Numbered from the stretch's first letter, positions 1 to 54,942 are shown. The stretch is DNA of 64,000 nt from an uncultured Gammaproteobacteria bacterium (GCA_964633905.1 CAZWIT010000005.1:26610-90609), one strand, 5' to 3'. Program-made: numbers and translations. Notes: generated from the letters alone by a model not told the origin.

Positions 1-885
1 AGCATAAAAAGTCAATTCCGGACTAGGCTGAACAAGCGGAACCATTTCCACGAGCACGGGCTTGGTTCTGACAATGCTGCCAGCTTGCCAAGCTTGGAAA
101 ATATAAGTCGTACTTGCCAAAACTTCAACGGAAATAGTGCCGGACAAACCAATATTATTGTTATTAGCATAGCCAGCAATAGTCACGCTATCAGCATTAA
201 CCGAAGACCAACTCAAATCAACCATGGTGCTGGGCGGGGCTTGTACCTGACTAGCCCAAGCATTCAAGCTTACGGTCGGCAGATCTGCCGGATGAACAGA
301 AAAAGCTTCCCGACGTACCAGATATTGATTATCTTCGCCAATCACCGCAAAGCTAACAACAAACTCACCAATATGTTGCGGTTTGTAGGAAAAACTATGC
401 TCACCTGCTTGGACAAAAACGCCAAGCGGTTCGATAATACCAAGCAAAGCATTGCTATTAACATGAACCATAATTTCCTCACCAAGCTGGATATCATAAG
501 GATCAATCTCCAAGCTAGACCAGAGTTCCTCCGGTTCCGGCGGATCAACAGGCAAAGCTTCGAGATTTTCATTAACAGCAATATTGGTATCTCCCAAGGC
601 CAAGCGCAGGCCGTAAGCCTTGCTCTTGTAACCTTCCTGAGAGAAGACAACAGCATATGACTTAGCTTCAAGTTCCAAACCAATGACCGGCGTATGGCCA
701 GCGTAGCTCAGGTTCTTGTCCTGCGACAACTCAAACACCGAAACATCGGCGTCCGGGTTGCAATGAATATCAACGATGGGATTACCAGGAATCGGCGGCA
801 CATAAGGCTGATCGAATTCGCTTTCGCAGCCAACCATGGCAAGCAAAGCCAAGGCCAGCACACCCAACAGGACTCTGTTCTTCAT
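1..885 (-). CDS. Secreted lipoprotein (C-terminus truncated by window edge); high-GC foreign-looking gene
   Basis: Hand translation of the minus strand gives an uninterrupted frame from ATG (complement of 883-885) to position 1. The N-terminus MKNRVLLGVLALALLAMVGC is a signal peptide with a lipobox-like Cys. An AAGGAGG RBS sits 6 nt upstream (complement of about 891-897). It is absent from the ORF track because it has no in-window stop. Local GC is about 50% against a genome background of about 33%. Confidence 0.6.
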   Translation of the reverse strand, partial: MKNRVLLGVLALALLAMVGCESEFDQPYVPPIPGNPIVDIHCNPDADVSVFELSQDKNLSYAGHTPVIGLELEAKSYAVVFSQEGYKSKAYGLRLALGDTNIAVNENLEALPVDPPEPEELWSSLEIDPYDIQLGEEIMVHVNSNALLGIIEPLGVFVQAGEHSFSYKPQHIGEFVVSFAVIGEDNQYLVRREAFSVHPADLPTVSLNAWASQVQAPPSTMVDLSWSSVNADSVTIAGYANNNNIGLSGTISVEVLASTTYIFQAWQAGSIVRTKPVLVEMVPLVQPSPELTFYA

Positions 886-897
886 GGTTCCTCCTTG

Positions 898-1914
898 CTA
901 GAAGTAGAGGGTGGCCCCGGCACTTGCCGAGAGTTTGTTGACGCGACCGCTCTGGTAGTGATCCAAGGACTGGAAACCACCGGCAGCATGAATGTCCAAG
1001 TGATTGCAGCGATAGCGCAAGCCCAAATAGGGGCCATAGCCTTGCTGCAAATATTCATTAACGCTATCCACGGACATGCTGGAGTAAAGCAGTCCAGCTG
1101 TAGGGCCAAAGCTCTTGCCCTTAGGAAGCCAAGTTACGGTCCCAGCCAAGAGCTTGTGATTCTTGTCACCAAACTCACTCTTACCGTAGGGCAAGAACCC
1201 ACCGGTAATGGAATACAGCCAATCGTTCTGACGATAGGTCAGACTCAAAGCCGGCACAGCCAAAGGCTCGCCGTGATTGACCATGACTGCTTCCACACCC
1301 ACACCAAGCTGCAGACGATCTTCTTCCTGAATAACTTTGTATTCAGGCGCAGGCTTTTCCTGCAAGTGTCTATCGAAATCATCACGCAAAACCTGAAGAG
1401 AATCAGCAAGAACATTGCTAATATACAAAAGCTGATCAACGTTATCATTTTCTACCAGCTCAAAAGCCTGGTAATAAATAACAATAGAAGGTACGGCCGT
1501 AATATTACTACCAGCGTCCTCTGCAACCAAAGTACTAAGGCCCATTGCTTTCAAAATCCGAACACCGTTTTGAAAACGTCCGGCAAGAGCGGCAGCGTCA
1601 TAGACGCCATTAAGCCTAGCTCTTTCTTGTTGCGAAATATTCTGCAGACGCTGCACGATTTTCCAGCCCTTGGCACTCTTGGTGGCTTTTACCACCATTT
1701 GGCCTTCGCCATTATTGGCGCGCTCGATATAGGGCTGCAAAACTTGCAGCTCAGCGAACTGGCTGACCACAAGAGAGTCAGCTACATCACCGTGCGGCAG
1801 ATAGATCACAACGCTACTCTCGCTTGTGACCTTAACGCTGTAGTTGTGACTTGAGGCAAAAGCCTGACCACACACCAACAACATCAAGACCAACAAACCC
1901 AAATGCTTTTTCAA
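898..1914 (-). CDS. Secreted beta-rich protein with outer-membrane-protein-like C-terminus (ends ...GATLYF); TTG start
   Basis: The track ORF 898..1962 probably starts at TTG (complement of 1912-1914), preceded by AAGGAG (complement of 1921-1926), which gives MKKHLGLLVLMLLVCGQAFA, a signal peptide. The C-terminal alternating hydrophobic residues ending in Phe are typical of BAM-dependent beta-barrels. GC is about 50%, and the gene is co-oriented with and adjacent to the lipoprotein gene at 1-885. Confidence 0.55.
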   Translation of the reverse strand: MKKHLGLLVLMLLVCGQAFASSHNYSVKVTSESSVVIYLPHGDVADSLVVSQFAELQVLQPYIERANNGEGQMVVKATKSAKGWKIVQRLQNISQQERARLNGVYDAAALAGRFQNGVRILKAMGLSTLVAEDAGSNITAVPSIVIYYQAFELVENDNVDQLLYISNVLADSLQVLRDDFDRHLQEKPAPEYKVIQEEDRLQLGVGVEAVMVNHGEPLAVPALSLTYRQNDWLYSITGGFLPYGKSEFGDKNHKLLAGTVTWLPKGKSFGPTAGLLYSSMSVDSVNEYLQQGYGPYLGLRYRCNHLDIHAAGGFQSLDHYQSGRVNKLSASAGATLYF

Positions 1915-2173
1915 GGCAGTCTCCTTTCGTTCCGTTTGACACGTTTCAAGACGCAAACCCAAAAACAGCCAGCTCTATTTGATCCTCTTTTGATCAACGA
2001 GTTGGCTCAAGCGTAGTGTATATTCCACTATCAAAGAACAAATGTATTTTTACAAATAGACCCAATAGTCTAAAACAATTACATAATTATGTCAAGATTT
2101 GATTATCAATAATAACCAAAAAAGAGCAGCAACTGCTCTCTTTTAATTTTAAACATAGATATTAATAAAGCCC

Positions 2174-9457: not shown

Positions 9458-10327
9458 TTATTCTAAACCTAGTTTAGCCAAACCTTTGTGAAAAATATCT
9501 TTAGCATTTTCATAGCCAAAAGTAGAGAGAGCTTCTGACTGACTAAACCATTTTACTTCTTTAATTTCTGTAACATCTGCCGCGGGTTGAACTAACTCTG
9601 TATCTTTAGCTTCTACTAAATAATATTTTATCAATTTACGAAAAGGTTTAGCATCTGGCTTATGCACCTTTACTTCGGTTTCACCTAAATATTCAATAAC
9701 TTTTAATTTTTGCAAACCAGTTTCTTCTCTGAGTTCTCGTAGAGCTACCGTTTCCAAAGTTTCACCCTCTTCAACATGGCCCTTAGGGAAAGTCCATTTA
9801 CCATAAGCATCAAGCACTAAACAAAAATTATAGCCGAGCTCTGTTTTGTGATAAACCATACCGCCAGCAGAAATTTCTTTTATACCTTGGCTAGCCAGAG
9901 TTTGTTTTTCACCTTTACTCATCATTTCTTTATAAATGCTACCTAAAACACCATTAACAAATTTACCACTAGCATCACCGCCAAAAGCTTTAGCAAGCTC
10001 AATAGCCTCGTTGATTGCTACCTTGGGCGGTATTTCTTGGGATACTTTTAATTCATAAATGCCAATGCGTAAAACATTACGATCAACCATAGTAATCTGG
10101 TCTAGTGGCCATTCTGGTGCAAATTGGACAATTAATTTATCAATTTCACGTCTATTTTTAACCACTTGACGAACCAAATTTAAAGCAAATCCCTGATCGT
10201 CAAAATCAGGGGCAAATTCTTGCTGATCATAATCCAAAGACTCCAATACATCATGCTCAGCATTGGTAAAATCCCATTCAAACAAAGCCTGCAAAGCAAT
10301 GGTCCTAGCTAAGTGTCTGTTGGCCAT
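9458..10327 (-). CDS. nusB: NusB (transcription antitermination factor) fused to a C-terminal NUDIX hydrolase domain
   Basis: Residues 1-140 match NusB, including the C-terminal block KVAINEAIELAKAFGGDASGKFVNGVLG. Residues about 150-289 carry a perfect Nudix box, GHVEEGETLETVALRELREETGL (G-x5-E-x7-REUxEExGU). It is a single uninterrupted ORF. Confidence 0.8.
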   Translation of the reverse strand: MANRHLARTIALQALFEWDFTNAEHDVLESLDYDQQEFAPDFDDQGFALNLVRQVVKNRREIDKLIVQFAPEWPLDQITMVDRNVLRIGIYELKVSQEIPPKVAINEAIELAKAFGGDASGKFVNGVLGSIYKEMMSKGEKQTLASQGIKEISAGGMVYHKTELGYNFCLVLDAYGKWTFPKGHVEEGETLETVALRELREETGLQKLKVIEYLGETEVKVHKPDAKPFRKLIKYYLVEAKDTELVQPAADVTEIKEVKWFSQSEALSTFGYENAKDIFHKGLAKLGLE

Positions 10328-10862: not shown

Positions 10863-12770
10863 TTAATTAGTGCTAGTAGCCGGTGGTAAAACTGGAGGCG
10901 TAGTAGTACTACCAGGTACTACTGGTACTCCGCCATTTGCTTCAGCATCAATTTCTTCTTGGGTAGCGCCAACTAAACAAACTTCTTGCCAAGGCACATA
11001 ATGACTGGTAAAAGTTACTTTAGTAGCTTCTGCCTCTCCAGCTTTTTGCACAAAATAATCAAATTTAGCATCAGCACCGTTGTGCGCTCTTTCAGTACAT
11101 TTAATTTGCCCGACTGGCAGGGTTGTAGTTTTGCTTACTTTTTTTGCTGGTGGCGCTACTTGATTATAAATAATAGGCTTAGTAGTACTAGCCACACGAC
11201 CATCGGGTGTTCCCCAAAAATCAAAATAAATTTTCATACCCTCTATCCGTGATTGTATCAAAATATAATGACCCGTATCATTGATAAATTTTAAATCTGG
11301 TTTAGGCGAATAAATAGTAGCATCCATACCCGCTGGCTCATAATAAACTACTCGATAAGAATGATTGCGCCTTTCCGTAATAGGTAAGCCAGTGCCTAGA
11401 GCGGCTCGAAAAACTGTCGTGCCAATCTGACACAAACCACCACCATATTCGGGAACAGTTTTGTTGCCTTTAATAACTAGTTCTTGTTTATAACCATGCT
11501 CTCCATCAATTTCTCCCAAAGCAGTGATTAAAGAAAATTCTTCATCTGGTCTAATAAGTAATCCATTTAAAGATTCCGCCCCTACTTTAATATTGTGAAC
11601 ACGATTAACTGGACTACCCGTAAAATCAGATTCGCCAGTACCAATGACTTTTTTAATACCTAAGTCATTTACATCACCATTCATCACTCTTGGTTCTATT
11701 ACTTCTGTTGCCAAAGCTATTTTTAATTCAGCCTTATTATCATTTAAAACTTTATTTAAATTATCCAGCAGCTCTGTTTGCTTAATAGCCCTACCTTGCT
11801 GGCTACTCATAAACTCAGACACTTTGCCATTAGTTAATTTAAATTTTGCATCTTGCACCGGTATTTCTACTGCTTCATAAATACCACTATCCGTTAAATA
11901 CTTTTGCAAGCTTTCTTGATTAAAAGTTAATTCTATTTTATTATCTAATACTAACTTGAGCCAAGACTTCCAAGTGTTAGCTGGAATTGCCCAATCTTTA
12001 TCTTCCCAAGTCAGATGTAAATCACCACGATTAGGTAAAGCTAGTATTTGAGTTTGATGTTGTTTGATAATAGCCGCTGTAACCTGTGGTTCGTCAGCTA
12101 CTATTTTTAATGATATTTCCTTATTATCCAAATATTTAATACGATCCAAGGTGTCTTCTAAGGCCAACTGATAATCGAATGTTTGCCCTACTTTTTCTGG
12201 AACTATCTCTAGGTTATTTTCTCTAAAAGAAAAACTAGCTTCTTGCTTATCACTCAAGACATCATTAAGACTATCGCGTAAAATCTGAATATGCTGTTCT
12301 CGATCCCAAGTATAAGACAATGACCAATTCTTACCTTTAGCCCAAACATAGATTTTATTAACTAAATTCCCTAAACCATTATCAGCTTGCCAATTTTTAA
12401 TAGCTTGCAAACTATTTTCTGCCTGCCAAATAATAATTGGGTAAGAAATATCAGCCGATTCTGTTGAAGAAACCGAAGGTAGAATAGTAATCTTCTTATC
12501 ATTTAAACGATAAACTAAGCCCTGTCTATTAAGTTCATCAATCCTAGTCTGAACCTTAATTTTGGCTTGTTCCAAGTTTAGATTAGAAATATCCACCCCT
12601 CCTAAGCTAGTACCTGGCAAATAAACATCCTTGTATTTTGTATTAATGGAAGCATTAGCTGTCAAAACTATAGCTAATAAAAAAATAAGGACAATCAAAA
12701 TCCACAAAACTAATTTGATTATCTTTATATTTTTATCTTGACGCAAACTTTCTTTGATTTTATTTATCAT
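10863..12770 (-). CDS. VanW-domain membrane-anchored protein (YoaR-like)
   Basis: N-terminal TM segment and a C-terminal region with the VanW-family motif GGGLCQIGTTVFRAAL. Pro/Thr-rich C-terminal tail. Confidence 0.65.
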   Translation of the reverse strand: MINKIKESLRQDKNIKIIKLVLWILIVLIFLLAIVLTANASINTKYKDVYLPGTSLGGVDISNLNLEQAKIKVQTRIDELNRQGLVYRLNDKKITILPSVSSTESADISYPIIIWQAENSLQAIKNWQADNGLGNLVNKIYVWAKGKNWSLSYTWDREQHIQILRDSLNDVLSDKQEASFSFRENNLEIVPEKVGQTFDYQLALEDTLDRIKYLDNKEISLKIVADEPQVTAAIIKQHQTQILALPNRGDLHLTWEDKDWAIPANTWKSWLKLVLDNKIELTFNQESLQKYLTDSGIYEAVEIPVQDAKFKLTNGKVSEFMSSQQGRAIKQTELLDNLNKVLNDNKAELKIALATEVIEPRVMNGDVNDLGIKKVIGTGESDFTGSPVNRVHNIKVGAESLNGLLIRPDEEFSLITALGEIDGEHGYKQELVIKGNKTVPEYGGGLCQIGTTVFRAALGTGLPITERRNHSYRVVYYEPAGMDATIYSPKPDLKFINDTGHYILIQSRIEGMKIYFDFWGTPDGRVASTTKPIIYNQVAPPAKKVSKTTTLPVGQIKCTERAHNGADAKFDYFVQKAGEAEATKVTFTSHYVPWQEVCLVGATQEEIDAEANGGVPVVPGSTTTPPVLPPATSTN

Positions 12771-15907: not shown

Positions 15908-18409
15908 TTATTTTTTATTATTCCTTAAAAATTGCCAAGCTAAAATTATCACAATAATCAAAACAAAATATAATAAAACCCTCCTGCTTGCCAAGCGCCT
16001 ACTAAAAGATTCACTAATTACATTAGTACTAGTACTAAAATTACTATCTATTTTTTCTCCTAAAACTGTTTGTGATAATTTTAAATCTTGTGCTCTTAAA
16101 ACATTTAATTTAAATTGTTCGTCTACTAAACCTAAAACTCCACTAGCAATAATTTCCGTATCTTTTTTTAAATTTAAATCTTTAGTAGAAAAGTTCAAAC
16201 TTGCTCGTAATTTAATCTCGCCACCTTTTTCTTCTGCCAAATAAATATTGGTGCCTGACTTCTTTACTATCCAGGCATGCAAACTCAAATAAGCACCCAA
16301 ATCACTTTCTGAAAAATCACTAAGCTCTATTGTTTCTGGAGCAATCAAATCCAAACTATTACCAATTGACTGCAAGTCATTTTTATTTTTTATTTTGATT
16401 CTTAAAGGTTGATATTTATTATTTACTTGACCACTGACCCCAACTAAATCGCCAGCTAAAATTTGCGGCCAGTCTTTTTTACTATTATAAACTTCAATAA
16501 CATTTTCATAGTCTGGACTATTATCATTTAAAGGAGCAAAAAACAAACTGCGACTACTCGTGCTGCTTGGATTCAAAGCTAAACCGCTAAAACTAACCAG
16601 TTGTTTATCTTGCCAATTATCTCTAGCTATTATTATTTCCGAAACATCGGCTACTTGTAAATTAGGAGCTTGGGGACTCGGATTCTTAGTCAAAAACCAT
16701 TCTTGATTAGTTAAATCCCAAGCTTGACTCTCACCCTCTTTAGCTTGCTGATATTCAACTTTTTGCCAAACTTCACCCAAAGGAGTAATTAAACGCACAG
16801 CATCGGCCTGATTGTTTAAAGCTAATTTGCTTTCTTGTCTAGAAATTAACAAAAACTCTCCGGCAGCAATACTAGAACTGGCATTAAATAAATATGGCTT
16901 ACTGCCGCCCTCATCATCGTCTAGTTGCCAAGCACTTAAATTAATATTTTTAGCACTGGCATTATAGAGTTCAACCCATTCACCTTCATCACTACCCTCT
17001 GGATCTGGTAAAAATTCGCTAATCAATAAGTCGCCAGGCTGAAAATCAATTTTAGCAATATCTTGCAATTTTATTTCTGGGTCCAAACTCTGAATATCTA
17101 ATAAGCTGGTTGCTTCACTTGATAAGCCACTTGGATCTGTCACCCGCAGACGCAACAAGTATTTTCCCGCACTAGCATAAGTATGATTTTCCTTTTTTTC
17201 ATCAGCCGATAAGTCATCACCAAAGTCCCAAAAATATTTTAAAGCCCCTTCTTCAGGATCAGATGATTCTTCGGCTGATAAAATTATCTTCTGACCAGCT
17301 ATCAAATCTTTACTTAAAACTGAAATTTTTGCCTGCGGAGCTAGATTAGCTTCAATAATATTGGTAGCACCTGGGCTCAAACTACTAGTCCAAACAAAGT
17401 CATTGTTTAGTCTGGCATAACTTTTATTTTCTGGAGCGTTATCTAGATAAGAAATACTTTCTATTAAATTATTATTGGGATCATAAAATTTCACACTGTC
17501 TCCACCCGTATTATTTAAAGAAATGCCAGTTAAACTTTTAGCTAAAACTAAATACGCATTAGGAGCTATATTAAAATTACCTTCTTCTGGAATAGTAAAA
17601 ATCCTAGCTGAATTATCTTGTAATTTACAAGCCGCCAAATCAATACTGGTATTGCCAGAATTAAAAAGTTCAATCCACTCTCCCTCATCGCTGCCACTAG
17701 GATTAGGTAGAAATTCTGAAATTTTAACTTGGCCCCAATTATTACTAAGACCGCCTGAGCCTGGCTGAGACGGTGGATTGTCTTCATTGTTTTCTGGAGG
17801 ATCATCATCGTCGCCTGGTGGGTTATCATCAGGCGGCGTATCAGATGCTTGACTATTTATTTGACCAGGAGTGCCACCACTAATATTACTAACTTGCCAA
17901 TTTGATTGACTACTGTCTTGATTTAAAATAATTTTTTCTAAACTATTACCGTCACCAGCCGCTCCCCAAGTAGCTTCATAGCTAGCATTAATATTTTGAC
18001 TTTGCCCACCATCAAAACTAAGCGCAATTGTGCTACTACTATTTGGTAAATTCATTACCGTGTCAAAAACAGTAGCCGTAAAACCAGGGTGGTTAGTTAA
18101 AAATTGGTTAGCATCACTAGCAATAATAAAATATTCTTGGCTAGCGATGGTACTAGTGCCATTAACTAAATTTAAAAGATGATTAGCGCCATCCCAAAAA
18201 CGCCAAGTCTGCCCACCGCTGCCCGTCAATACTTCTACCACCTCTGCACCACCATTATAAACCTCAATCCACTCCTGACCGCTGTCCGAACCTTGCGCAT
18301 CGTACATAATTTCCGAAATCACCAAATCATTTGTGCTAGCTAAACTTATTTTTGGTAAAAATAAATTTAACAAAAATAAAATTAAAAATATTGTCGCTTT
18401 TCTTTTCAT
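15908..18409 (-). CDS. Large secreted surface protein with three lamin-tail-domain (LTD) repeats, a PKD-like domain and a C-terminal TM anchor
   Basis: Signal peptide MKRKATIFLILFLLNLFLPKISLA. Three LTD cores: LVISEIMYDAQGSDSGQEWIEVYN, VKISEFLPNPSGSDEGEWIELFN and LLISEFLPDPEGSDEGEWVELYN. PKD-like KYFWDFGDD...GKYLLRLRVTD. A Pro/Asp-rich linker, and a C-terminal hydrophobic segment plus basic tail. Confidence 0.65.
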   Translation of the reverse strand: MKRKATIFLILFLLNLFLPKISLASTNDLVISEIMYDAQGSDSGQEWIEVYNGGAEVVEVLTGSGGQTWRFWDGANHLLNLVNGTSTIASQEYFIIASDANQFLTNHPGFTATVFDTVMNLPNSSSTIALSFDGGQSQNINASYEATWGAAGDGNSLEKIILNQDSSQSNWQVSNISGGTPGQINSQASDTPPDDNPPGDDDDPPENNEDNPPSQPGSGGLSNNWGQVKISEFLPNPSGSDEGEWIELFNSGNTSIDLAACKLQDNSARIFTIPEEGNFNIAPNAYLVLAKSLTGISLNNTGGDSVKFYDPNNNLIESISYLDNAPENKSYARLNNDFVWTSSLSPGATNIIEANLAPQAKISVLSKDLIAGQKIILSAEESSDPEEGALKYFWDFGDDLSADEKKENHTYASAGKYLLRLRVTDPSGLSSEATSLLDIQSLDPEIKLQDIAKIDFQPGDLLISEFLPDPEGSDEGEWVELYNASAKNINLSAWQLDDDEGGSKPYLFNASSSIAAGEFLLISRQESKLALNNQADAVRLITPLGEVWQKVEYQQAKEGESQAWDLTNQEWFLTKNPSPQAPNLQVADVSEIIIARDNWQDKQLVSFSGLALNPSSTSSRSLFFAPLNDNSPDYENVIEVYNSKKDWPQILAGDLVGVSGQVNNKYQPLRIKIKNKNDLQSIGNSLDLIAPETIELSDFSESDLGAYLSLHAWIVKKSGTNIYLAEEKGGEIKLRASLNFSTKDLNLKKDTEIIASGVLGLVDEQFKLNVLRAQDLKLSQTVLGEKIDSNFSTSTNVISESFSRRLASRRVLLYFVLIIVIILAWQFLRNNKK

Positions 18410-19341: not shown

Positions 19342-20400
19342 TTAATTTGTAGCCATCAACTTGGCCAAAGCTTCTGCCAATACCTTAGACATATCAACAT
19401 TGCGAATCAAGCCACCGGTAGTATTACGGTAAGAGCGGTAAATAGTATTGCCAGCCAAAATCATTTTAAAAGGGCTATCTTCGGGTTCAGCTACTTCTTC
19501 GCGCCAACCCGGTGAACAACAAGTGTGAGTTACAGCAAAAATAACTTGCTCAGCACCAAGCAACAAACACCAGCGCGCATTGCCAGCCGCTGTCCGACCA
19601 GTGTCAAGCTCATCATCGCGAATAATTACTGCTGACCCTAGTAACGCTTTTTCATAATCCTGCCAGATAATAGGAATACCGCTATCTGTTTGCAGTTGCT
19701 CAAGCAAGCGCAAAGTATCAGCTGTAAGCTCGACATTGATATTAATCTGCCCATTAGCCAGACGCTCTTTGGGTCTAAATAATACTGGAACAGATAGGGC
19801 CTTAGCTAGTTTTACGGCTCTTTCCAAAGATCCTTTGTCCGGAGAAAACACATAACATTGTTTATTGTTAGCCTTAATTTCTTCCATAAAATCAAGCAGA
19901 GAAGCAGCAAAAGCTGAAGTCGGATCAACATTAGTCATATTAAGACCTGCTTCCAAACCATTAATAATTGTTTGCTGCGAATGACAATCGCAAACAATCA
20001 AGCTATCAACGCCATTTTGTTTTAGGCTATGCAAAAACCAACGATTACGTTGAATCTCCTTAGGTTTTTCAGCGTGATCTTGGCGCCGATAAGCCATAAA
20101 AGGCATAACCACTGTTAGAGTTTTAGCCATATATTGGTGTTTGATGGCCCAAATAAGCTGGAGACCTTGCAAAACCAGGGAGCCACTGTGGCTAGCCATA
20201 AAAAATACTACGTGCTTGCCGGCAACATCAACAAACTTGGGAATTTTATCGTTAAATTCGCCATCACGCCAATTGGAATAATTAATGTGTGACAGCTTCA
20301 AATCGGGGTCATTCGGCCTAAGAGCATTTAAACGATCAATAATCCTAACTGCCAGATTATGCATCTCGCCTTCGCTGCAAAGCAAGACAAAGCCGGGCAT
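19342..20400 (-). CDS. prs: Ribose-phosphate pyrophosphokinase (PRPP synthetase)-family protein
   Basis: LTVVMPFMAYRRQDH resembles the PRPP synthetase flexible loop (PYFGYARQDRK). The C-terminal PRPP-binding motif is VIIRDDELDTGRT. GC is elevated (about 45%) relative to neighbouring genes. Confidence 0.65.
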   Translation of the reverse strand: MPGFVLLCSEGEMHNLAVRIIDRLNALRPNDPDLKLSHINYSNWRDGEFNDKIPKFVDVAGKHVVFFMASHSGSLVLQGLQLIWAIKHQYMAKTLTVVMPFMAYRRQDHAEKPKEIQRNRWFLHSLKQNGVDSLIVCDCHSQQTIINGLEAGLNMTNVDPTSAFAASLLDFMEEIKANNKQCYVFSPDKGSLERAVKLAKALSVPVLFRPKERLANGQININVELTADTLRLLEQLQTDSGIPIIWQDYEKALLGSAVIIRDDELDTGRTAAGNARWCLLLGAEQVIFAVTHTCCSPGWREEVAEPEDSPFKMILAGNTIYRSYRNTTGGLIRNVDMSKVLAEALAKLMATN

Positions 20401-28802: not shown

Positions 28803-29501
28803 TTAAGCTGTTTTTTTATTATTTTTCCCTAAGATTAAATATTGTTGAAAAACAGAGAACAGAGTAGTAAATAACCAATACATGGTAAGCCCGGCTGGTA
28901 GACTAGAGCCAATAAAAATAGTAATTACTGGCATAAAATAAAGCATTTGTTTATTCATCATAGCGCTCATACCGCCAGTACTAGCATTTTTGCCACCTAA
29001 TAGCATTTTAGATTGCCAAAACTGAGCCAAACCAGCTAGTACTGCTAGTAAAATATTTTTATTAGCTAAATCAATAAAACCAAAAGCAATAGTATTTAAT
29101 GAGCCTGGGTTAGCCACGAAAGCATATAAAGCAGACAAACTACTTTCTTTGGTCAAACCATCATAAAAAACACGATAAATAGCAAATAAGAATGGTAATT
29201 GAATTAAGGTAGGCAAACAAGAAGCAAATGGATTGATCTTTCTTTCTTTATATAAAGACATTAGCTCTGGACCCATTTTTTCTTTATTGTCCTTGTATTT
29301 TTCTTTAAGAGCTTCTATTTCTGGTTGAATTAGCTGTAATTCTTTTTGAGACTTAATGGCTGATTTAGAAAGAGGATATAATATTAAACGAATTAAAAGG
29401 GTTAATAATAATATAGCCACACCCAAATCGTGTCCTGGAACACTATTGTATAAAAAAACTAGTAAATTAAAGATTGGTTGATAAAAAATTGTATGAAACA
29501 T
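28803..29501 (-). CDS. yidC: Membrane protein insertase YidC (short Gram-positive/CPR type)
   Basis: 232 aa with five TM segments. The first helix carries the conserved arginine (LIRLILYPLS), and the C2 loop is coiled-coil. The gene is adjacent to yidD, rnpA and rpmH. Confidence 0.85.
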   Translation of the reverse strand: MFHTIFYQPIFNLLVFLYNSVPGHDLGVAILLLTLLIRLILYPLSKSAIKSQKELQLIQPEIEALKEKYKDNKEKMGPELMSLYKERKINPFASCLPTLIQLPFLFAIYRVFYDGLTKESSLSALYAFVANPGSLNTIAFGFIDLANKNILLAVLAGLAQFWQSKMLLGGKNASTGGMSAMMNKQMLYFMPVITIFIGSSLPAGLTMYWLFTTLFSVFQQYLILGKNNKKTA

Positions 29502-29507
29502 AAATTT

Positions 29508-29768
29508 TTATTTAATTGGATCGTGACCACCTTTGGACCAGGGATGACAACGCAATAAACGATAAGAACACATAATTACACCCTTATAAGGACCATGTTT
29601 GCTTATTGCTTGCCGACAATATTCTGAACAATGTGGCTCAAAGCGACAAAATCCATAAGGATAAAATCCTTTTAATAAACCATCGTCTGGTGATAAGGTT
29701 TTTTGATAAATATTAATAATAAACAACAATATTTTCTTTAAAAACTCATTAAACCAGGAAAATATCAT
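29508..29768 (-). CDS. yidD: Membrane protein insertion efficiency factor YidD
   Basis: YQKTLSP...CRFEPHCSEYCRQAI...HPWSKGGHDP matches the conserved YidD family sequence. Confidence 0.8.
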   Translation of the reverse strand: MIFSWFNEFLKKILLFIINIYQKTLSPDDGLLKGFYPYGFCRFEPHCSEYCRQAISKHGPYKGVIMCSYRLLRCHPWSKGGHDPIK

Positions 29769-30115
29769 GATTTTTTATTCAATAGCTTAATTTGATTATA
29801 GGCAAATTCTATTTGTTTTTTTAATTCAACAAAATTTAGCTCTAAGGCACTTTTTTTAGCTATAATTAGCAAATTATATCCTGGTTTTAAGTCTTTTAAA
29901 AAACTTCTATTTATTTCTCTTAGTCGTCTTTTTAATAAATTTCTTCTACTTGCCCTTTTATCAACTTTATTTGAAACTATAAAACCAATCTTAATGTCCT
30001 TATCTTGATTAGCTAGATATTTTAAGGTTAGTTGCGGCAAAAAAAAGGTTTTACCAGATCGGATTAACCTTTTTATTTCTAAGTCAGTGTTTAATCTGTT
30101 GTTTTTGGCCAACAT
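29765..30115 (-). CDS. rnpA: Ribonuclease P protein component
   Basis: 116-aa basic protein. Its position between rpmH and yidD is universally conserved, and the RNR-like basic motif (KRASRRNLLKRRLREI) is present. Confidence 0.8.
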   Translation of the reverse strand: MLAKNNRLNTDLEIKRLIRSGKTFFLPQLTLKYLANQDKDIKIGFIVSNKVDKRASRRNLLKRRLREINRSFLKDLKPGYNLLIIAKKSALELNFVELKKQIEFAYNQIKLLNKKS

Positions 30116-30432: not shown

Positions 30433-31809
30433 ATGGAAAATCGTGAAAAAATTTGGCAAAGTGTTTTGGGTCAATTAGAGCTACTAATTAGTCGCGCTAA
30501 TTTTACAACCTGGTTTAAAAATACTTTTTTAGCTGAACACAACGAACAACAAGTAATAGTAGGGGTTCCTAATTCCTTTACTAAAGTTTGGTTAGAAAAA
30601 AAATATCATGATCATATTACCAAATCTTTAGAAAATATCTTATCTATAAATAATCTACAGGTTATCTACAGGGTTGAAAATAGGGATATTGCACCTAATA
30701 TTAGCCAAAATATTGCTGAAATTAAAGAAGCAAATCAGACTCCTGTGCATAACCAAACAGTTATAAACAACAATAAAACCATTAATAAATTTGGTTTAAA
30801 TACTAGCTATAATTTTAGTAATTTTATTGTTGGGCCAGGCAATGAACTTGCTCAAGCAGCTTCTATGGCTTGTGCTCAAAAACCAGGTGAAACTTATAAT
30901 CCATTATTTATTTATGGCGGTGTGGGCCTTGGCAAAACCCACCTTGTTCAGGCTGTTGGAAACTATATTTTGGCTAAAAATCCACAAAAAAAGATACTTT
31001 ACATAAACAGTGAAAAATTTACTAATGACTTTATTTTTGCCATAAAAAGCGGCCACACTGATAAATTCAAAGAAATATATAGAAATGTTGATGTTTTATT
31101 AATAGACGATATTCAATTTATAGCCGGTAAAGAACAAACCCAGGAAGAGTTTTTCCATACTTTTAACGCTCTTCATCAAAATAACAAACAAATAGTCATC
31201 TCGTCAGACCGACCACCCAAGGCAATTGCCGGTATTGAAAACCGCTTAATTTCTCGTTTTGAATGGGGAATGATAGCTGATATTTCTTTTCCTGATTTAG
31301 AAACTAGAGTAGCAATTCTTGAAACTAAGTGCCAACAAAAAAATTATAATCTTGCTACTGAAATTATTCACCTAGTAGCTGAAAGTATCCAGGAAAATAT
31401 TCGTGAACTAGAAGGAGCTTTAAATAGAGTAATTGCTTTTCATCAGCTTAATAACACTCAACCAAGTCTAGAAAGCGTACGCGCCCTCTTAGGAGGAATT
31501 TCTGCTAATCCTAAAAAAGCTGGGCTTACTACTAAAAAATTATTAAAAACAGTAGCAGATTTTTTTGATATTTCCCTAGATGAATTGCTTGGTTCTAGTA
31601 GAAAAAAAGAATTGGTCGTACCTAGACAGATTGCCATGTTTTTGATGCGCGAACAATTAAAAAGTTCTTTTCCTAACATCGGACAAGAAATAGGGGGTAG
31701 GGATCACACTACTGCTATGCACGCTTGTTTAAAAATTTCAGACCTAATAACTAGTGATGAAAAAATGAAAAACGATCTGGCTGTTCTGCGTCAAAAACTA
31801 TATGAATAA
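30433..31809 (+). CDS. dnaA: Chromosomal replication initiator protein DnaA
   Basis: AAA+ Walker A GGVGLGKTHL, Walker B LLIDDIQF, sensor motifs, and a C-terminal DNA-binding domain with the DnaA signature. Confidence 0.95.
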   Translation: MENREKIWQSVLGQLELLISRANFTTWFKNTFLAEHNEQQVIVGVPNSFTKVWLEKKYHDHITKSLENILSINNLQVIYRVENRDIAPNISQNIAEIKEANQTPVHNQTVINNNKTINKFGLNTSYNFSNFIVGPGNELAQAASMACAQKPGETYNPLFIYGGVGLGKTHLVQAVGNYILAKNPQKKILYINSEKFTNDFIFAIKSGHTDKFKEIYRNVDVLLIDDIQFIAGKEQTQEEFFHTFNALHQNNKQIVISSDRPPKAIAGIENRLISRFEWGMIADISFPDLETRVAILETKCQQKNYNLATEIIHLVAESIQENIRELEGALNRVIAFHQLNNTQPSLESVRALLGGISANPKKAGLTTKKLLKTVADFFDISLDELLGSSRKKELVVPRQIAMFLMREQLKSSFPNIGQEIGGRDHTTAMHACLKISDLITSDEKMKNDLAVLRQKLYE

Positions 31810-32042: not shown

Positions 32043-33146
32043 ATGAAAATAATTTGCACCCAAGAAAATTTAAATAAAGGATTAAATTTAGTCTCCCACA
32101 TTGCAAATAAAAATAGTAATTTGCCAATCTTAAATAACGTATTATTTAAAGCTAATAAAGATGGTTTAACTTTAATTACCACTGATTTAGAAATTGGTAT
32201 AAAAGTATTTGTGCGTAGCAAGGTGGTAGAAGAAGGAGATTTTACCATTGATGCTAAACTATTAAATAATTATGTTAGTTTATTACCAAAAGAAAATATT
32301 GATTTAAATCTTAATGAAGGTTCTTTGGAAATAAAAAGTGCTAATCAAGAAACTAGTATAAAAGGTTTGGATGCCGAAGATTTTCCCTTAATACCAGAAA
32401 TTGAAAAGACCAACGAAGTTTTGATACCAGCTGCTGATTTAAAAAAAGCCCTAAATCAAGTTTTGTTTTCAGCCTCTTTGGATAGTTCTCGAATCGAAAT
32501 TAATGCTGTTAATTTTAATTTTTATAAAGAGAATTTAACCTTAGTCGCTACCGATAGCTATCGTTTAGCAGAAAAGAAAATAAAAATTAACAATCAGAGT
32601 AAAGAAGCAAATTTAATTATTCCTCTTAAAACACTACAAGAACTAAACAGGATTATAGCTGAACAACCTGGAGAAGATTTAAAATTATATTTTAATGAAA
32701 ATCAAATACTTTTTGTTTTTGATGGCGTGGAGCTTGTTTCTAGGGTAATAGATGGTCATTATCCTGATTACAAACAAATTATTCCCAGTAGTTTTGTGAC
32801 TAAAGTAAAATGTGATCTAAACAAGCTAATTCCAGCTATTAAGGCTGTTTCCTTGTTTTGTAAACAAGGAATTAATGATATTAAGTTGAGTTTTGAGGAA
32901 AAAAGCGGGGAAATAATAATATCAACAGCCTCTTCTTATACTGGTAATAGTATTGCCAGGATTCCAGCTGAAATAAAAGGGGAAAACAACGACATAGTCT
33001 TTAATTATCGTTATTTGTTAGATGGTTTAAATAATATTGATAGTAGCCAGGTTTATCTACAACTAAACAACAATGCTTCGCCTGGTCTTGTTCAACCAGG
33101 TGATAATCAAGAATATATATATTTAATTATGCCTATTAGACAATAG
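32043..33146 (+). CDS. dnaN: DNA polymerase III beta sliding clamp
   Basis: 367 aa with a three-domain beta-clamp layout, immediately downstream of dnaA. Confidence 0.9.
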   Translation: MKIICTQENLNKGLNLVSHIANKNSNLPILNNVLFKANKDGLTLITTDLEIGIKVFVRSKVVEEGDFTIDAKLLNNYVSLLPKENIDLNLNEGSLEIKSANQETSIKGLDAEDFPLIPEIEKTNEVLIPAADLKKALNQVLFSASLDSSRIEINAVNFNFYKENLTLVATDSYRLAEKKIKINNQSKEANLIIPLKTLQELNRIIAEQPGEDLKLYFNENQILFVFDGVELVSRVIDGHYPDYKQIIPSSFVTKVKCDLNKLIPAIKAVSLFCKQGINDIKLSFEEKSGEIIISTASSYTGNSIARIPAEIKGENNDIVFNYRYLLDGLNNIDSSQVYLQLNNNASPGLVQPGDNQEYIYLIMPIRQ

Positions 33147-33351: not shown

Positions 33352-33927
33352 TTACAAGTCTTTATCAAAGAGGCAGATTAGGTATATGGCAATATAGGGT
33401 GCGCCAAGTAAAATCACGAAATATGGCAGGGCAATCAGAAATCCTTGTGATAAGCCTAGTCCGAACAAATATCCAGGCACCCAACCCAGTGTTTGGAAGG
33501 GTGCAGCTATAATAGATATTGGATCAAGGTAGTAGCCTTGGTGTTTTTCTTTAACAAAAACATATACAAATGGCCACAAAAAACACAAGACAGTTGCTGC
33601 CAGCGGCCCAATAAGACTTGTTGCTAGCAAATAAACAAAAGCACCAGCGGCAAATTGTCCCAAGGCCTCCTTGCGCATGTAAGAGTCTTTGGCAAAATTG
33701 TATAAGTGATACAAAAAAACAAAGATTAAGGCAAAGGGAAGAAGGTCGGAAATAGGACGAAGTAAGAGGGTTTTGGGTAGTTTTGAAAACAGTAGGTTGT
33801 CGTTGGCCCAACCCAGCAAGTAATTAATATTAAGAATGCTGAATAAAAAACTCAGACTGGTACAAGCGACAATGCCTAGGACAAAGGGTAAAAATAGTTT
33901 TTGTAAGAACCAGGCAAGGTGTTTCAT
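33352..33927 (-). CDS. Integral membrane protein, unknown function (5-6 TM)
   Basis: The start was chosen at MKHLAWFLQK, preceded by AAAGGAG. Highly hydrophobic throughout, with GC modestly above background. Confidence 0.45.
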   Translation of the reverse strand: MKHLAWFLQKLFLPFVLGIVACTSLSFLFSILNINYLLGWANDNLLFSKLPKTLLLRPISDLLPFALIFVFLYHLYNFAKDSYMRKEALGQFAAGAFVYLLATSLIGPLAATVLCFLWPFVYVFVKEKHQGYYLDPISIIAAPFQTLGWVPGYLFGLGLSQGFLIALPYFVILLGAPYIAIYLICLFDKDL

Positions 33928-34042
33928 GGTGTGGCTCCTTTTTAAGGTTGACAACGGACGCGGCAAACAGACTAATATTAACGATAATATCAAAATCTTG
34001 TCAATTGAATTAATTGGTTTTTTTTGTTAAGATGGCTTATAT

Positions 34043-37342: not shown

Positions 37343-40300
37343 ATGCCTCAAACCAAACTTGCGACTGCTCGCAAATTTTTTACGCCACAACAAGAAGCTA
37401 TTCCATTACCAGACTTAGTGGAAGTGCAAAAAAAATCATATAATTGGTTTTTTTCAGAAGGCTTAAAAGAATTATTTGAAGAGATATCGCCGATTAGGGA
37501 TTTTATTGGTCGCGATTTAGAACTTTATTTCTTGGATTATTATTTGGACGAACCAAAATTTGACGAGGTTACTGCCAAGTCTAAAAATCTAACCCACGAA
37601 GCTCCTTTGCGTGTTAATATTCGTTTGGTAAACAAACGTACTAATGAGGTTAAAGAACAGGAAATATATTTAGGAGACTTTCCTATTATGACTGAGCGCG
37701 GCACCTTTATTGTTAATGGTGTTGAGCGTGTTGTTGTTTCTCAATTAATCAGAAGCGCTGGTGTGTTCTTTACTTCTGAAGTGCATCGTGGTCGTCGTTA
37801 TTATGGTGCTAAAATTATTCCTAATCGCGGTGCTTGGTTGGAAATTGAAACCGATGCTTCTAATGTTATTTATGTAAAAATTGATCGTAAGCGCAAGGTG
37901 CCAATTACAGCCTTGCTTAGGGCTTTAGGTAAAGGTACTAATGAAGAAATTTCTCAACTCTTTAGCGACGTGGATAATCATCCAGAAGTTAAATTTATAA
38001 AGAGCACCTTAGATAAAGATATTTCTCATAATGAAGCTGAAGGTTTGCGCGAAGTTTATCGCCGTATTCGTCCAGGTGATTTAGCAACCACTGATAATGC
38101 CAGGAGTTTAATTCACTCTATGTTTTTTGATTTTGATCGTTATGATTTTGGTAGAGTTGGTCGTTATAAAATAAATGCTCGTTTCAGCTTAGACCTTCCT
38201 AATAATAAAGAAACCAGAGTGTTGCGAGTTGATGATTTAGTTTTAGTAATCAAGGAAATTATTAGACTTAACCTTACTCAAGAAGAGGCTGATGATATTG
38301 ATCACTTGGGTAATCGTCGTGTTCGAGCTATTGGTGAATTAGTCCAAGGTCGTTTTCGTATCGGCTTGGCTCGTATGGAAAGAATTGTTAAAGACCGCAT
38401 GAGCACTTTGGATATTAATAGTCTTACTCCTAATCAATTAATAAACGCCCGTCCAGTTATTGGTGTAATTAAAGAGTTTTTTATGAGCTCTCAGCTTTCT
38501 CAATTCATGGATCAGGTGAATCCTTTGGCTGAACTAGAACATAAGCGTCGTTTATCAGCCATGGGTCCAGGTGGTTTATCTAGAGAAAGAGCTGGTTTTG
38601 AAGTTAGAGACGTGCACCGCACTCACTATGGTCGTATTTGTCCTATTGCTACTCCCGAGGGTCCAAACATTGGTTTGGTGGGACACCTAGCTTCTTATGC
38701 TCGGGTTAACGATTTTGGTTTTATTGAAACACCATTTTGTCGAGTTTTGCATGATATAGAAAATGATCCCAAGGTTACTGAAAATAAAATTGCTAGAATT
38801 GATATCGTTGATCCAGATAGCAAAAATATTATTGTAAAAGCCGGAGAAAAAATAAGCGCGAGCAAAGCCAAGGAACTGGCTCACTATAAAAATATCAACG
38901 TCGTTCCTATTAAGCCAATAGTAACTAAAGAAATTGTATATTTTGATGCTTTTGAAGAAGAAAAATATAACACAGCCGCGGCCACTACCCCAATTGACGA
39001 AGAGGGATATTTTGTTAATGAGTATGCAGAAATTAGGGTAAAAGGAAATCCAGCCTATGATAAAGTAGAAAAAATTGATTTACTAGATGTTGCCCCTAAT
39101 CAGATTGTTAGTATTGCTACTTCTTTAATTCCATTTTTAGAACATGACGATGCTGTGCGTGCTTTGATGGGAACAAACATGCAGCGCCAAGCAGTTTCTT
39201 TAATTAAACCAGAAGCACCTGTTGTGGGAACTGGTGTGGAAGCAAAAGCTGCCATTGACTCTGGTCAGGTAATTGTAGCTAAAGAAGATGGCGAGGTAAG
39301 TATGGTAGACAGTTGTCATATTGAAGTTACTAATAAAGATGGAGTTGTTACTCAATACAATTTAAATAAATTTGCCCGCTCCAATACTTCTACTAGTATG
39401 AATCAACATCCAATTGTTGATAAGGGTGAAAAGATTAAACGTGGTCAAGCTCTAGCCGATGGTGCTGCTACTGATCACGGTGAGTTAGCACTAGGTCGCA
39501 ATGTTTTGGTTGCTTATATGACTTGGGATGGTGGTAACTACGAAGATGCTATTTTAATTTCGGAAAGAGTTGTTAAAGGTGATTTTTATACATCTATCAG
39601 CATTGAAGATTATTCTATTGATGTTCGCGATACAAAACTTGGACCAGAAGTAATTACGCGCGACATTCCTAATGTTAGTGAAGAAAAATTAAAAGATTTA
39701 GATAGAGAAGGTATAGTTCGTATTGGTGCTAACGTTTCTTCTGGCGATATTTTAGTTGGAAAAATTACACCTAAGGGCGAAACTGAGCTTTCAGCTGAAG
39801 AAAAATTATTACGCGCCATTTTTGGTGAAAAAGCCAAAGATGTCAGGGACACTTCTTTATACTTGAAACACGGTGAACGAGGCAAGATTATTGATGTTAA
39901 AATATTTTCTCGTGACAAGGGTGATAAATTGCCAGCCGGCGTTATAAAAACTATTCAAGTAACTATTGCTCAGCTACGTAAAATTCAAGTAGGTGATAAA
40001 ATGGCTGGTCGTCATGGTAACAAAGGTGTTATTTCTCGCGTTGTGCCTGAGGCTGATATGCCATTTTTAGCTGACGGTACACCAGTTGACGTTATTTTAA
40101 ATCCCTTGGGCGTTATTTCTCGTATGAACTTGGGTCAATTACTCGAAACCCATTTGGGCTTAGCTGCTCGCACCTTGGGAATTAAAGTTGCAAGTCCAGC
40201 CTTAAATGGAGTGCCAGAAGAAATTATTAGAGAGCAATTGAAAAAAGCTGGTTGGCCAGAAGGTGGTAAAATACAATTATATGATGGTCGAACCGGACAA

Positions 40301-40783
40301 CCTTTTGCTAACAAGAGTACGGTCGGCGTTTCTTATATTTTGAAATTAAACCACTTAGTAGAAGATAAAATTCACCAACGTTCTATTGGTCCTTACTCAT
40401 TGGTTACTCAACAACCATTGGGCGGTAAAGCCCAATTTGGCGGACAAAGATTAGGAGAAATGGAAGTTTGGGCACTTGAAGCTTATGGTGCTTCTAATAC
40501 TTTGCAAGAAATGATTACCATTAAATCAGACGATGTACCTGGTCGCTCTAAAGCTTACGAGGCAATTATTAAGGGCGAGCCAATTAGACGCTTGAATATT
40601 CCAGAATCTTTTAATGTCTTGGTAAGAGAATTAAAAGGCCTGGGCTTAGAAGTGGAGTTAATTGGCCAAAGAGAACGCAAGGTAGAAGACGTTGATTCAG
40701 AGACTAGGGAAATATTAGAAGAAGAAGCCCCTATTATTATTGATGCCGTTGCCTCCCCAGAAACAGATGCCGTAGGCGAATAA
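37343..40783 (+). CDS. rpoB: DNA-directed RNA polymerase subunit beta
   Basis: 1146 aa with conserved beta-subunit blocks (the rifampicin-region [21 protein letters not shown], NPLGVxSRMN). Confidence 0.95.
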
Positions 40784-40834
40784 TTTTTATAATTTTATTA
40801 CAAGCTTAAAATAATAAGCTAAGAGCAAAAAAAT

Positions 40835-43800: not shown

Positions 43801-44716
43801 TACCATGCGTACCTTCCACACTGGCGGTGTTGCTGAAGGTGATATTACCCAGGGTTTACCAAGGGTAGAAGAACTATTTGAAGCTCGTCCACCTAAAAAA
43901 TCAGCCATTCTAGCCCCAGTTACAGGTATCGTTAGTATTGAAGACAACAATAGACTGGTTAGTAAAGATAATCGTTTAGTTAAAATTCAACCTCAGGGCT
44001 CAAGAATTGCTAAATATGAATTAGAAAAAGGCTTAGAACTCAAGGTAAAAGATGGTGACGAAGTGATAAAAGACCAACTCTTATTTGTTAATGAGGACGA
44101 AGAAGTTAGAGCTGGCTTTAAGGGCGTAGTAAAATTGACCAGTGACCAACTTCAAGTTATGACTAATAAGGATGAGGTGCAGGAAGTTATTATTCCAGCT
44201 GGTTACAGCTTGTGGGTGAGAGATAAAGATCTAGTAACAGAAGGTCAGCAATTGACTGAGGGTAGTATTGATTTACACGAGCTTTATAGCTTGCAAGGCA
44301 AATTGGCAGTTCAGAAATATATTATCAAAGAAATTAAACATATTTATTCTTCCCAAGGTCAAAATCTAAATGATAAACACGTAGAGTTAATTGTTAGACA
44401 GATGTTTTCTCGTATTTTAATCAAAGATGTGGGTGAGACCGAATTGTTGCCAGGCGAAGTAATTACCAATACTCAATTTATGGAAGCAAATATTAAATCC
44501 AGTGGCCAATCAGCTAGAGGCGAAATATTATTGTTAGGCATTACTAAAGCAGCCCTGACATCAGACTCTTTCTTGTCAGCTGCTTCTTTCCAGGAAACAG
44601 CTCGCGTCTTAATCGATGCTGCTATTACTGGTAAGATAGATCATCTAAAAGGCTTAAAAGAAAATGTAATTATTGGCCGTAAAATACCAGCTGGTACCGG
44701 CTTTCAAAACAGATAA
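40835..44716 (+). CDS. rpoC: DNA-directed RNA polymerase subunit beta'
   Basis: Zn-finger C..C..C..C near the N-terminus, the catalytic NADFDGD motif, and trigger-loop and bridge-helix blocks; 1293 aa. Confidence 0.95.
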
Positions 44717-54541: not shown

Positions 54542-54550
54542 TATTTATTT

Positions 54551-54904: not shown

Positions 54905-54913
54905 TAACTTTAC

Positions 54914-54942
54914 TTGAAAGAAATACACTTTTGTTGTATAAT
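54914..54942 (+). promoter_or_regulatory. Sigma70-like promoter upstream of pilin paralog 3
   Basis: TTGAAA (54914-54919), a 17-nt spacer, and TATAAT (54937-54942). A strong RBS AAGAAGGGGGGTG precedes the ATG at 55027. Confidence 0.45.

Follow-up and report, generated by a model that had tools for sequence, protein, structure and literature searches.

The window, by which we mean the whole stretch of 64,000 nucleotides analysed here (GCA_964633905.1, CAZWIT010000005.1:26610-90609, deposited as an uncultured Gammaproteobacteria bacterium), opens within a GC-rich island that carries two genes on the minus strand. Gene A (positions 898-1914) encodes a secreted protein with a modelled β-barrel, and gene B, which follows it downstream and runs off the start of the window, encodes a lipoprotein. 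The host is a Parcubacteria/Paceibacterota bacterium that belongs to the candidate phyla radiation (CPR); both genes are native to its chromosome. As a whole, we consider it probable that A and B form a vertically inherited two-gene Parcubacteria operon, the GC content of which is held at an equilibrium by selection on the messenger RNA (mRNA). The operon would possess its own promoter, leader, two strong ribosome-binding sites (RBSs), and terminator; it is located between trmD and the 16S rRNA gene. The elements of the island described below are all on the minus strand, and related assemblies and loci are designated by L numbers.

The protein encoded by gene A is 338 residues long and starts at a TTG codon (1914-1912), not an ATG; the database version is a TTG-extended call of 354 residues. 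It is composed of a signal peptide, an α/β domain, a linker helix, and a β-barrel. The signal peptide (residues 1-20; 1855-1914) reads MKKHLGLLVLMLLVCGQAFA, with cleavage assigned by sequence pattern between AFA and SS, and hydrophobic N-termini are conserved in the family alignment. The N-terminal domain spans residues ~23-152 (1459-1848), and the linker residues ~153-197 (1324-1458). The C-terminal barrel (residues 198-338; 901-1323) ends in GATLYF. The RBS of gene A, AAGGAG, was read from the sequence at 1921-1926. A sigma-70-like promoter (2067-2095; TTGACA-17-TAGACT) is assigned solely from its match to the consensus at 10 of 12 positions; it is conserved in relatives, with TATATT as the -10 element in the L004-L006 lineage. 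The match to the promoter sets the start of a putative 5' leader of the A-B transcript (1915-2060). The upstream limit of the A-B unit is a terminator-like hairpin (2114-2148) of a preceding gene for a 77-residue protein. The window and the L004-L006 lineage differ little in the leader, which is about 145 nt long and contains the perfect palindrome TTGATC-AAAAGAG-GATCAA, which could be a regulatory or stabilising element of the 5' untranslated region (UTR). No RNA family of Rfam was found in the island or its leader.

The first 295 codons of gene B lie at positions 1-885; the gene is complete on L001, where it encodes 528 residues, and on L006. The RBS AAGGAGG (890-896) is located inside the 12-nt spacer between A and B, and the gene starts with ATG at 885-883. 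The protein begins with MKNRVLLGVLALALLAMVGC, followed by ESE, and its lipobox is LAMVGC. The lipoprotein with an MVGC lipobox that had been predicted from the sequence is thus present, and its relatives have canonical lipoboxes (LAGC, LTGC, LGAC, FGAC, MSAC, and LSAC). Across lineages, B is conserved only in its signal peptide and lipobox and in the few residues that follow the cysteine (C-E-S-E-A/F; C-S-E-A in L009). The mature part is 207, 221, 443, 528 or 719 residues long and cannot be aligned among distant lineages. A word-indexed search with the partial B sequence returned one distant relative only. In the position of B, L010 carries a lipoprotein (10940-11605, plus strand) that consists almost entirely of short Y-D-S/T-x-x-V/I-I/V repeats (…VIYDTLVIYDTLVIYDSITVYDTLVV…) and is unrelated to the B protein of the window apart from its CESE start. 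No Lgt or Lsp gene is present in the window and its flanks, as judged without a test aimed at these genes. Surface lipoproteins of Bacteroidetes carry an export signal, K-(D/E)2 or Q-A-(D/E)2, after the lipidated cysteine (PMC5080379). The acidic Cys-Glu-Ser-Glu retained by B right after the lipobox resembles this signal, and the likeness goes no further than resemblance; the motif and the phylum differ, and the product of gene C, a further GC-rich lipoprotein gene of the window described below, lacks the motif.

The GC content of positions 1-1960 is 0.484, compared with 0.343 over the remaining 62 kb of the window, in line with the original prediction of about 50% against about 33%. All other 1960-bp stretches of the window have a GC content of at most 0.411 (mean 0.344, standard deviation (sd) 0.026), and the island lies ~5.4 sd out. 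The border, which had been placed sharply at the start of gene A, is indeed steep, with GC falling from 0.50 at 1651-1950 to 0.29 at 1951-2250, but the elevated GC begins ~100 nt 5' of the start codon of A, within the predicted leader, and thus reaches to ~2010. The whole island is ~2.7 kb long and ends at the terminator after gene B, just past the start of the window. Downstream of gene B the GC content drops, and an AT-rich spacer of ~400 bp is followed by the 16S rRNA gene in the same orientation. In all five lineages with a sequenced end of B, the GC-rich stretch stops at most 100 nt after the B terminator hairpin, and in the four lineages with the 16S gene downstream, an rRNA promoter, TTGACA-17-TAATAT, is conserved beyond the terminator.

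The codon usage of the island is GC-rich and its RBSs are strong, as had been claimed. The GC content at third codon positions (GC3) is 0.53 in gene A and 0.46 in gene B, compared with a mean of 0.27 (sd 0.07) in 53 other open reading frames (ORFs) of the window. Adenine occupies 0.09-0.17 of the third positions in A and B, compared with 0.31, and the genes are A-poor in all lineages. Accordingly, TTA falls from 47% to 1% of leucine codons, CCA from 51% to 4% of proline codons, and AAA from 77% to 30% of lysine codons. All lineages shift towards C-ending two-fold codons (TTC, TAC, AAC, and ATC) plus AAG, CAG, and CTG, and they differ widely in how often C is preferred to T as the third letter. 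The GC content at first and second positions (GC12) of gene A is also raised, at 0.47-0.49 compared with ~0.39. Gene B is GC-rich even in lineages in which its mature protein is non-homologous, and in L010 it combines an ordinary GC12 of 0.39 with a GC3 of 0.58. Since B is GC-rich despite an unrelated protein and an ordinary GC12, the GC signal is largely synonymous and a property of the transcript. The long plus-strand ORFs antisense to the island (85-660 and 694-1854) were rejected as genes; such ORFs are expected in GC-rich DNA, and they are broken up in L006.

An exhaustive phmmer search with A against 1.84 billion representative sequences yielded only 20 relatives, which are 300-390 residues long except for one fragment of 154 residues. 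All named relatives are metagenome-assembled genomes (MAGs) of Candidatus Parcubacteria, Candidatus Paceibacterota, or the "Patescibacteria group". Wherever the context could be read, a lipoprotein gene is located downstream of A, and most pairs occupy the same locus. The order SMC-S16-KH-TrmD-77aa-A-B, with 16S rRNA beyond B, recurs in at least five independent assemblies: L001 (Logan SRR13355620), L004 (ENA ERZ27282891), L005 (Logan SRR6837549), L006 (a GTDB representative MAG), and a 10-kb ENA contig, which informs on gene order only. Across these assemblies the A protein is 83-100% identical to the window copy, and all those with an available DNA sequence show the GC step of the window. 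The order VanW-L32-NusB/NUDIX-RNaseIII-SMC-S16-KH-TrmD-A-B-16S is preserved in L010, L011, and L012. The trmD-A-B-16S arrangement is also present in the window lineage (L001 and L006) and in L021, and trmD-A-B in L013, JGI 3300072015, and partially L009. Some of the Parcubacteria lineages that keep trmD-A-B-16S share no more than 29-35% identity in A. Identity to the window in L010 and L013 is 29-31% for A, 59% for SMC, and 76-79% for TrmD, and the first 350 nt of the 16S rRNA are 84-88% identical between L006 and L010 or L021. The GC3 of A and B is 0.52-0.60 in the syntenic distant loci, compared with 0.21-0.36 in their flanks; neighbouring genes over all loci, including the window and L007, range from 0.18 to 0.36. 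L007 carries the A-B pair at a different locus, between genes for thioredoxin and a CorA/Zip protein, with a GC3 of 0.73-0.79 compared with ~0.25 in the neighbours, and in L008 the same jump is seen in total GC, from 0.28-0.41 upstream to ~0.56. Of two scans of JGI metagenomes, the first returned no locus and the second two true ones, one of them already known; L022 from this source was a false locus and was discarded. A scan of viral contigs revealed no relative, and PHROGs gave no match. L006 (CAZHLU010000020.1) is labelled as an uncultured Gammaproteobacteria bacterium, and its label looks wrong, as its gene content, synteny, and 16S fragment fit a Parcubacteria-type genome; its housekeeping proteins are 95% identical to those of the window.

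The composition of the island is at equilibrium. In three close lineages (the window, L002, and L006), the number of synonymous substitutions per synonymous site (dS) is 0.55 for A (range 0.51-0.66) and 0.47 for B (range 0.46-0.48), compared with 0.57 for TrmD and 0.81 for SMC, and synonymous sites are saturated in the distant lineages, in A and in housekeeping genes alike. The ratio of nonsynonymous to synonymous rates (dN/dS) is 0.17 for A and 0.12 for B, and therefore both genes are under purifying selection. Synonymous changes polarised on the three-taxon tree amount to 91 GC-to-AT and 90 AT-to-GC, which demonstrates the equilibrium, as a ratio of ~3:1 would be expected from drift towards the genome GC3 of ~0.25 (binomial P = 7.5e-13). 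No tRNA gene, integrase or other mobility gene is located near the island, and a search for flanking direct repeats and att-like sites found only short AT-rich chance repeats. The neighbours of the island are housekeeping genes and the rRNA operon.

These results bear on two origins that had originally been proposed for the island, neither of which held up. According to one, the island had been acquired horizontally from a donor of higher GC content, probably a diderm and conceivably the bacterial host of an episymbiont; if the transfer was recent, the GC content would not yet have been ameliorated. Such a transfer would account for the atypical GC content and codon usage with their sharp borders, and for the outer-membrane-type architecture of A, which is unexpected in CPR bacteria; in addition, the L007 pair is at another locus and has a still higher GC content. 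However, related genomes of low GC content, among them distant ones with saturated dS, carry homologs of equally raised GC content at the corresponding position, and only L007 differs in site. The dS values of A and B resemble those of the flanks, and the synonymous flux is balanced. A donor lineage was sought by homology, and none emerged among the 20 relatives of A; all of these that are named or have a checked gene context are of Patescibacteria type. Mobility genes and convincing border repeats are missing, and gene C behaves alike at a second conserved locus. We therefore regard recent transfer as highly unlikely. The fold of A may have been transferred from a diderm in the distant past, which would not account for the present composition. 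The other proposed origin, an artefact in which assembly or binning had joined sequences of different origin near the end of the contig, is suggested by the closeness of the composition change to the edge of the window. The window is, however, a slice of a 106-kb NCBI contig, low GC and the 16S gene resume past gene B, and the junction is reproduced with diverged sequence in the independent assemblies of different samples described above and also in distant lineages, and we practically dismiss this explanation. The A-B island thus resembles acquired genomic islands in its sharp borders, deviant GC content and codon usage, and orphan surface proteins, and differs from them in the deep conservation of its locus, equilibrium flux, flank-like dS, and lack of mobility genes and of a donor.

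The remainder of the window is not uniformly low in GC, as the original contrast between the island and the rest implied: the island does stand out, but gene C (56816-57499, minus strand), found by a GC3 scan of all ORFs, is also GC-rich (GC 0.537, GC3 0.654). Gene C encodes an orphan lipoprotein of 227 residues, which begins with MKYKTYLLFALALGLLTLLSAC, followed by AGP, and has the lipobox LLSAC. An AT-rich promoter region of its own precedes the gene, and its terminator is strong and GC-rich. Its orthologs are 47-79% identical and syntenic, between genes for a DUF2079 membrane protein and T4SS pilins, and have a GC3 of 0.55-0.74, compared with 0.23-0.36 in their flanks. Other secreted proteins near gene C (the T4SS pilins) and an SBP_bac_8 lipoprotein in L014 are not GC-rich; the property therefore belongs to particular transcription units and not to exported proteins generally. 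Next to gene C, positions 53924-56744 (plus strand) encode four to five small signal-peptide proteins that match T4SS_pilin (PF18895), an arrangement conserved in L014-L018. In scans of A, B, and C against Pfam, NCBIfam, and PHROGs, the sole match was a sub-threshold one of B to PEGA (E 0.047).

We compared the mean minimum free energy of folding in 120-nt segments with that of sequences in which synonymous codons were permuted within 40-codon blocks. By this measure the island genes, nine from five lineages, exceed their shuffles in stability by an average of 3.7 kcal/mol per 120 nt (z averaging -3.7 and ranging from -1.2 to -4.9). In 15 control genes (ten E. coli genes of ~50% GC, including ompA, and five genes of the window), the average difference is -0.7 kcal/mol (mean z -0.9; Mann-Whitney P = 2e-4 for island against control genes). 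On average, the sense strand carries more of this excess folding than the antisense strand does. When codons were shuffled globally, z was -5.8 to -6.9 for A, B, and L007-A, compared with -2.1 to +0.3 for twelve controls from the window. The confinement of the GC rise to the transcript, the sense-strand bias, and the folding beyond that of the shuffles agree with selection on the mRNA itself, for its structure, stability, or the pacing of translation, as the most likely cause of the high GC content. Structured transcripts with few A-ending codons would be appropriate if abundant envelope proteins were made from an mRNA that is long-lived or slow to be translated. In E. coli, ompA and lpp give rise to unusually stable envelope mRNAs, and the stabilising element is the 5' UTR. 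These are likewise envelope messages that rely on RNA structure, as the excess of predicted structure in the island transcripts would suggest for A and B; the coding sequence of ompA, however, shows no excess folding (z -0.05), whereas the whole coding region of the island is recoded.

The main rival to mRNA selection is GC-biased gene conversion at a recombination hot spot, in which a fast-evolving surface-antigen locus is exchanged often between strains and its GC content is raised by biased repair. The replacement of the passenger part of B by non-homologous sequence and the evolution of A, ~3 times faster than that of its neighbours, are both consistent with recombination, GC12 of A is raised too, and the balance of substitutions fits a conversion bias as well as it fits selection. 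Nevertheless, the GC rise tracks the transcription unit at both ends in five lineages, which is unexpected for a recombination tract. In the window lineage the shift is lopsided, with A-to-G changes at purine-ending codons far exceeding T-to-C changes, unlike the prediction for strand-symmetric conversion, and the sense-strand excess of folding also speaks against it. We give gene conversion a minor but appreciable chance. A cause at the level of codons, either optimal codons for very high expression or rare codons that slow or gate translation, agrees with the consistent shift to C-ending two-fold codons, AAG, CAG, and CTG in all lineages, with the strong RBSs of both genes, and with the presence of tRNAs for G-ending codons (tRNA-Leu TAG and tRNA-Arg CCT). 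It appears rather improbable, because S16, RpoB, RpoC, RecA, and SSB stay AT-rich, which means that translational selection is weak genome-wide, the untranslated leader is GC-raised as well, the preferred pyrimidine endings differ among lineages, and the nearby pilins and the L014 lipoprotein mentioned above are not GC-rich. Heavy transcription could also bias mutation by exposing the non-template strand to A-to-G and C-to-T deamination. The signature is confined to a transcription unit, the coding strand in the window lineage is A-poor and G-enriched and still T-rich, and the operon lies near the replication origin (oriC), beside the rRNA operon and in the same orientation. Against this, C occupies ~0.5 and T ~0.13-0.16 of third positions in L007 and L015, the opposite of C-to-T pressure, the bias would have to far exceed that in rpoB and rpoC, and the excess of folding over composition-matched shuffles would be unaccounted for; we consider a mutational cause of this kind very unlikely. 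Adjacency to the rRNA operon was rejected as the cause of the high GC content, as neither the L007 pair nor gene C, which are likewise GC-rich, is near an rRNA gene.

The structure of full-length A was predicted with AlphaFold from a family alignment of 21 sequences to a mean predicted local distance difference test (pLDDT) score of 81. In the model, eight antiparallel β-strands, each 12-16 residues long, make up residues 201-337 (pLDDT ~90), and in these strands a hydrophobic face alternates with a Gly, Ser, or polar face. In a Foldseek comparison of full-length A with the PDB, all 14 matches with E ≤1e-3 are outer-membrane barrels, the best being NspA (1p4t; E 1.1e-5), OmpW (2f1v), Ail (3qrc), OprF-N, and OmpX (1qj9); the transmembrane domain of OmpA (1bxw) is among them at E 1.0e-3. 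The window protein ends in phenylalanine; so do 18 of the 22 aligned family members, and the other four end in leucine or a short extension. The signal-peptide protein resembling an outer-membrane barrel that had been predicted from the sequence is thereby borne out by the AFA-SS cleavage site, the modelled eight-stranded barrel, and the terminal phenylalanine. The N-terminal 130 residues, modelled alone (pLDDT 89.8; predicted template modelling (TM) score 0.83), adopt the β-α-β-α-β fold of a peptidoglycan-binding domain of the OmpA_C/MotB/Pal/SiiA-like type, and their best structural matches are of that type: SiiA (6qvp; E 1.4e-4), MotB, PA0833, OmpA-C, OprF-C (5u1h; TM 0.56-0.59), and Pal (4b5c). 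Two residues of this domain, D106 and R113, are invariant in the family alignments. The linker is modelled as a helix of low confidence (pLDDT 48-58 over residues 151-200) and corresponds to a length-variable region of the family alignment.

At the level of modelled folds, gene A is composed of the two modules of OmpA in reverse order. It shares with OmpA and OprF both modules, the signal peptide, and an aromatic C-terminal residue. The wall-binding-like domain of A, however, comes first and the barrel last, ~25 residues are inserted between the ND(P)T and N-x-A-R motifs, and the protein, found only in Patescibacteria, is without a significant profile match. NspA, OmpX, Ail, and OmpW, the best structural matches of the barrel, are similar to it in strand length and in the division into hydrophobic and Gly/polar faces, but are stand-alone barrels of diderms assembled by the β-barrel assembly machinery (BAM), whereas the barrel of A follows an N-terminal part of 175 residues. 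The models thus suggest a family of reversed and highly diverged OmpA-type modules in an unexpected phylum. A search of PDB sequences with a full-length A profile gave no match, and a profile of the N-terminal domain retrieved only designer pentatricopeptide repeat proteins, which were discarded as an artefact of summed weak repeat matches.

We hypothesize that A and B constitute an envelope or host-interface module. The barrel of A would reside in a lipid layer, with the OmpA-like domain anchoring it to the cell wall, and B would be a fast-evolving surface lipoprotein that acts beside A and the passenger part of which is freely replaced. The literature regards the CPR as a monoderm clade (10.1101/2021.05.31.446380), with the reservation that descriptions of their envelopes are few (PMC8871954), and a conserved family of OmpA-type barrels is therefore unexpected in Parcubacteria. 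It is also conceivable, if improbable, that some Parcubacteria have or exploit a second lipid layer, that A-B provides a reversed OmpA-type staple, and that the GC content is a set-point maintained by mRNA selection. The barrel would then be embedded either in a layer of the epibiont that resembles an outer membrane or in the host's own outer membrane, with the N-terminal domain gripping the epibiont wall. The hypervariable lipoprotein would mediate host specificity, and codon usage would be kept far from that of the genome by selection for a structured, long-lived mRNA. If this were true, bacteria would possess a heritable GC set-point for individual genes, of a kind so far undescribed in them. 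The stable GC set-point of the island genes is in any case unusual, and no description of such a gene-specific set-point was found in the literature searched.

Several observations weigh against the interpretation of A-B as an envelope operon with a composition maintained by mRNA selection. As CPR bacteria are regarded as monoderm, the placement of the barrel of A in a membrane is putative, and no gene for outer-membrane biogenesis, including those of BAM, is present in the 64-kb window and its flanks. The models of A were built on shallow alignments of 16-21 sequences, and the Foldseek matches are moderate (E 1e-5 to 1e-4, TM 0.4-0.6). In Pfam and NCBIfam scans of A and B, no model matches A at E ≤1, which includes the barrel families OmpA_membrane, OMP_b-brl, OmpW, and Ail_Lom. 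When the A family was compared by hhalign with E. coli OmpA-C, Pal, and MotB together, or with OmpA-C alone, the result lacked significance (probability 1-3%), and thus profile comparison does not support membership of A in the OmpA family at the sequence level. In OmpA-like domains, the peptide stem is bound by a conserved Asp and a conserved Arg (TD...N-x-x-L-S-x-x-R-A); one such non-significant alignment places R113 on the second arginine of the OmpA ERRA motif, but the distance to the ND(P)T motif is different. The evidence for mRNA structure is statistical, with one E. coli control at z -3.4 and gene C at only -1.2, and there are no long runs free of synonymous changes, none in A exceeding chance. 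The choice of pyrimidines at third positions, with C ranging from 0.19 to 0.53 between lineages, fits no simple model. Ribosomal protein S16, RpoB, RpoC, and RecA show no rise in GC3, and therefore high expression alone is not the cause.

The A-B operon is a counter-example to the equation of atypical GC with foreign DNA, since it shows that deviant composition in an island is compatible with great age, synteny, and a mutational-selective equilibrium. Tools for island finding and MAG decontamination would wrongly flag or remove it. Genes A, B, and C retain a GC3 of 0.46-0.79 in genomes with a GC3 of ~0.25, over a divergence at which synonymous sites are saturated, and are thus a natural system for studying what maintains synonymous GC, the candidates being the structure or stability of the mRNA, a bias in conversion, and the gating of translation by codons. 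A Parcubacteria-specific family with the two structural modules of OmpA is also a target for study, as the attachment of CPR bacteria to their hosts is poorly understood.

The window is a part of the core chromosome. The origin neighbourhood comprises yidC (28803-29501) and rnpA (29765-30115) on the minus strand, and dnaA (30433-31809) and dnaN (32043-33146) on the plus strand. Gene orientation switches from minus to plus at ~30.2 kb, which places the island ~28 kb from the likely oriC and co-oriented with replication. The window also contains rpoB, rpoC, recA, ftsK, and genes for FemAB, a Mur ligase, and VanW; the rpoB and rpoC calls (37343-44716) are based on ORF lengths and the name given by the source to a cluster-mate of the first ORF. 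Two minus-strand genes have a mildly raised GC3, above that usual for the genome and below that of the island; they encode a polytopic membrane protein that matches no Pfam family (33352-33993; GC3 0.42) and a PRPP-synthetase-like protein (19342-20400; GC3 0.37). An 833-residue protein with a PKD domain and three LTD domains (15908-18409, minus strand; GC3 0.24) is likely a large surface protein. A fusion of NusB with a NUDIX hydrolase (9458-10327, minus strand; 289 residues) is conserved in L010, L011, and L013. In the 16S rRNA gene of L010 (12001-13380), the site of primer 515F reads GTGCCAGCAGCAGCGGTAA in place of ...GCCGCGGTAA, and that of primer 341F reads GGCTGCAGTCAAGAATCTT. Such mismatches in primer sites of L010-type 16S rRNA can cause amplicon surveys to under-count the clade.

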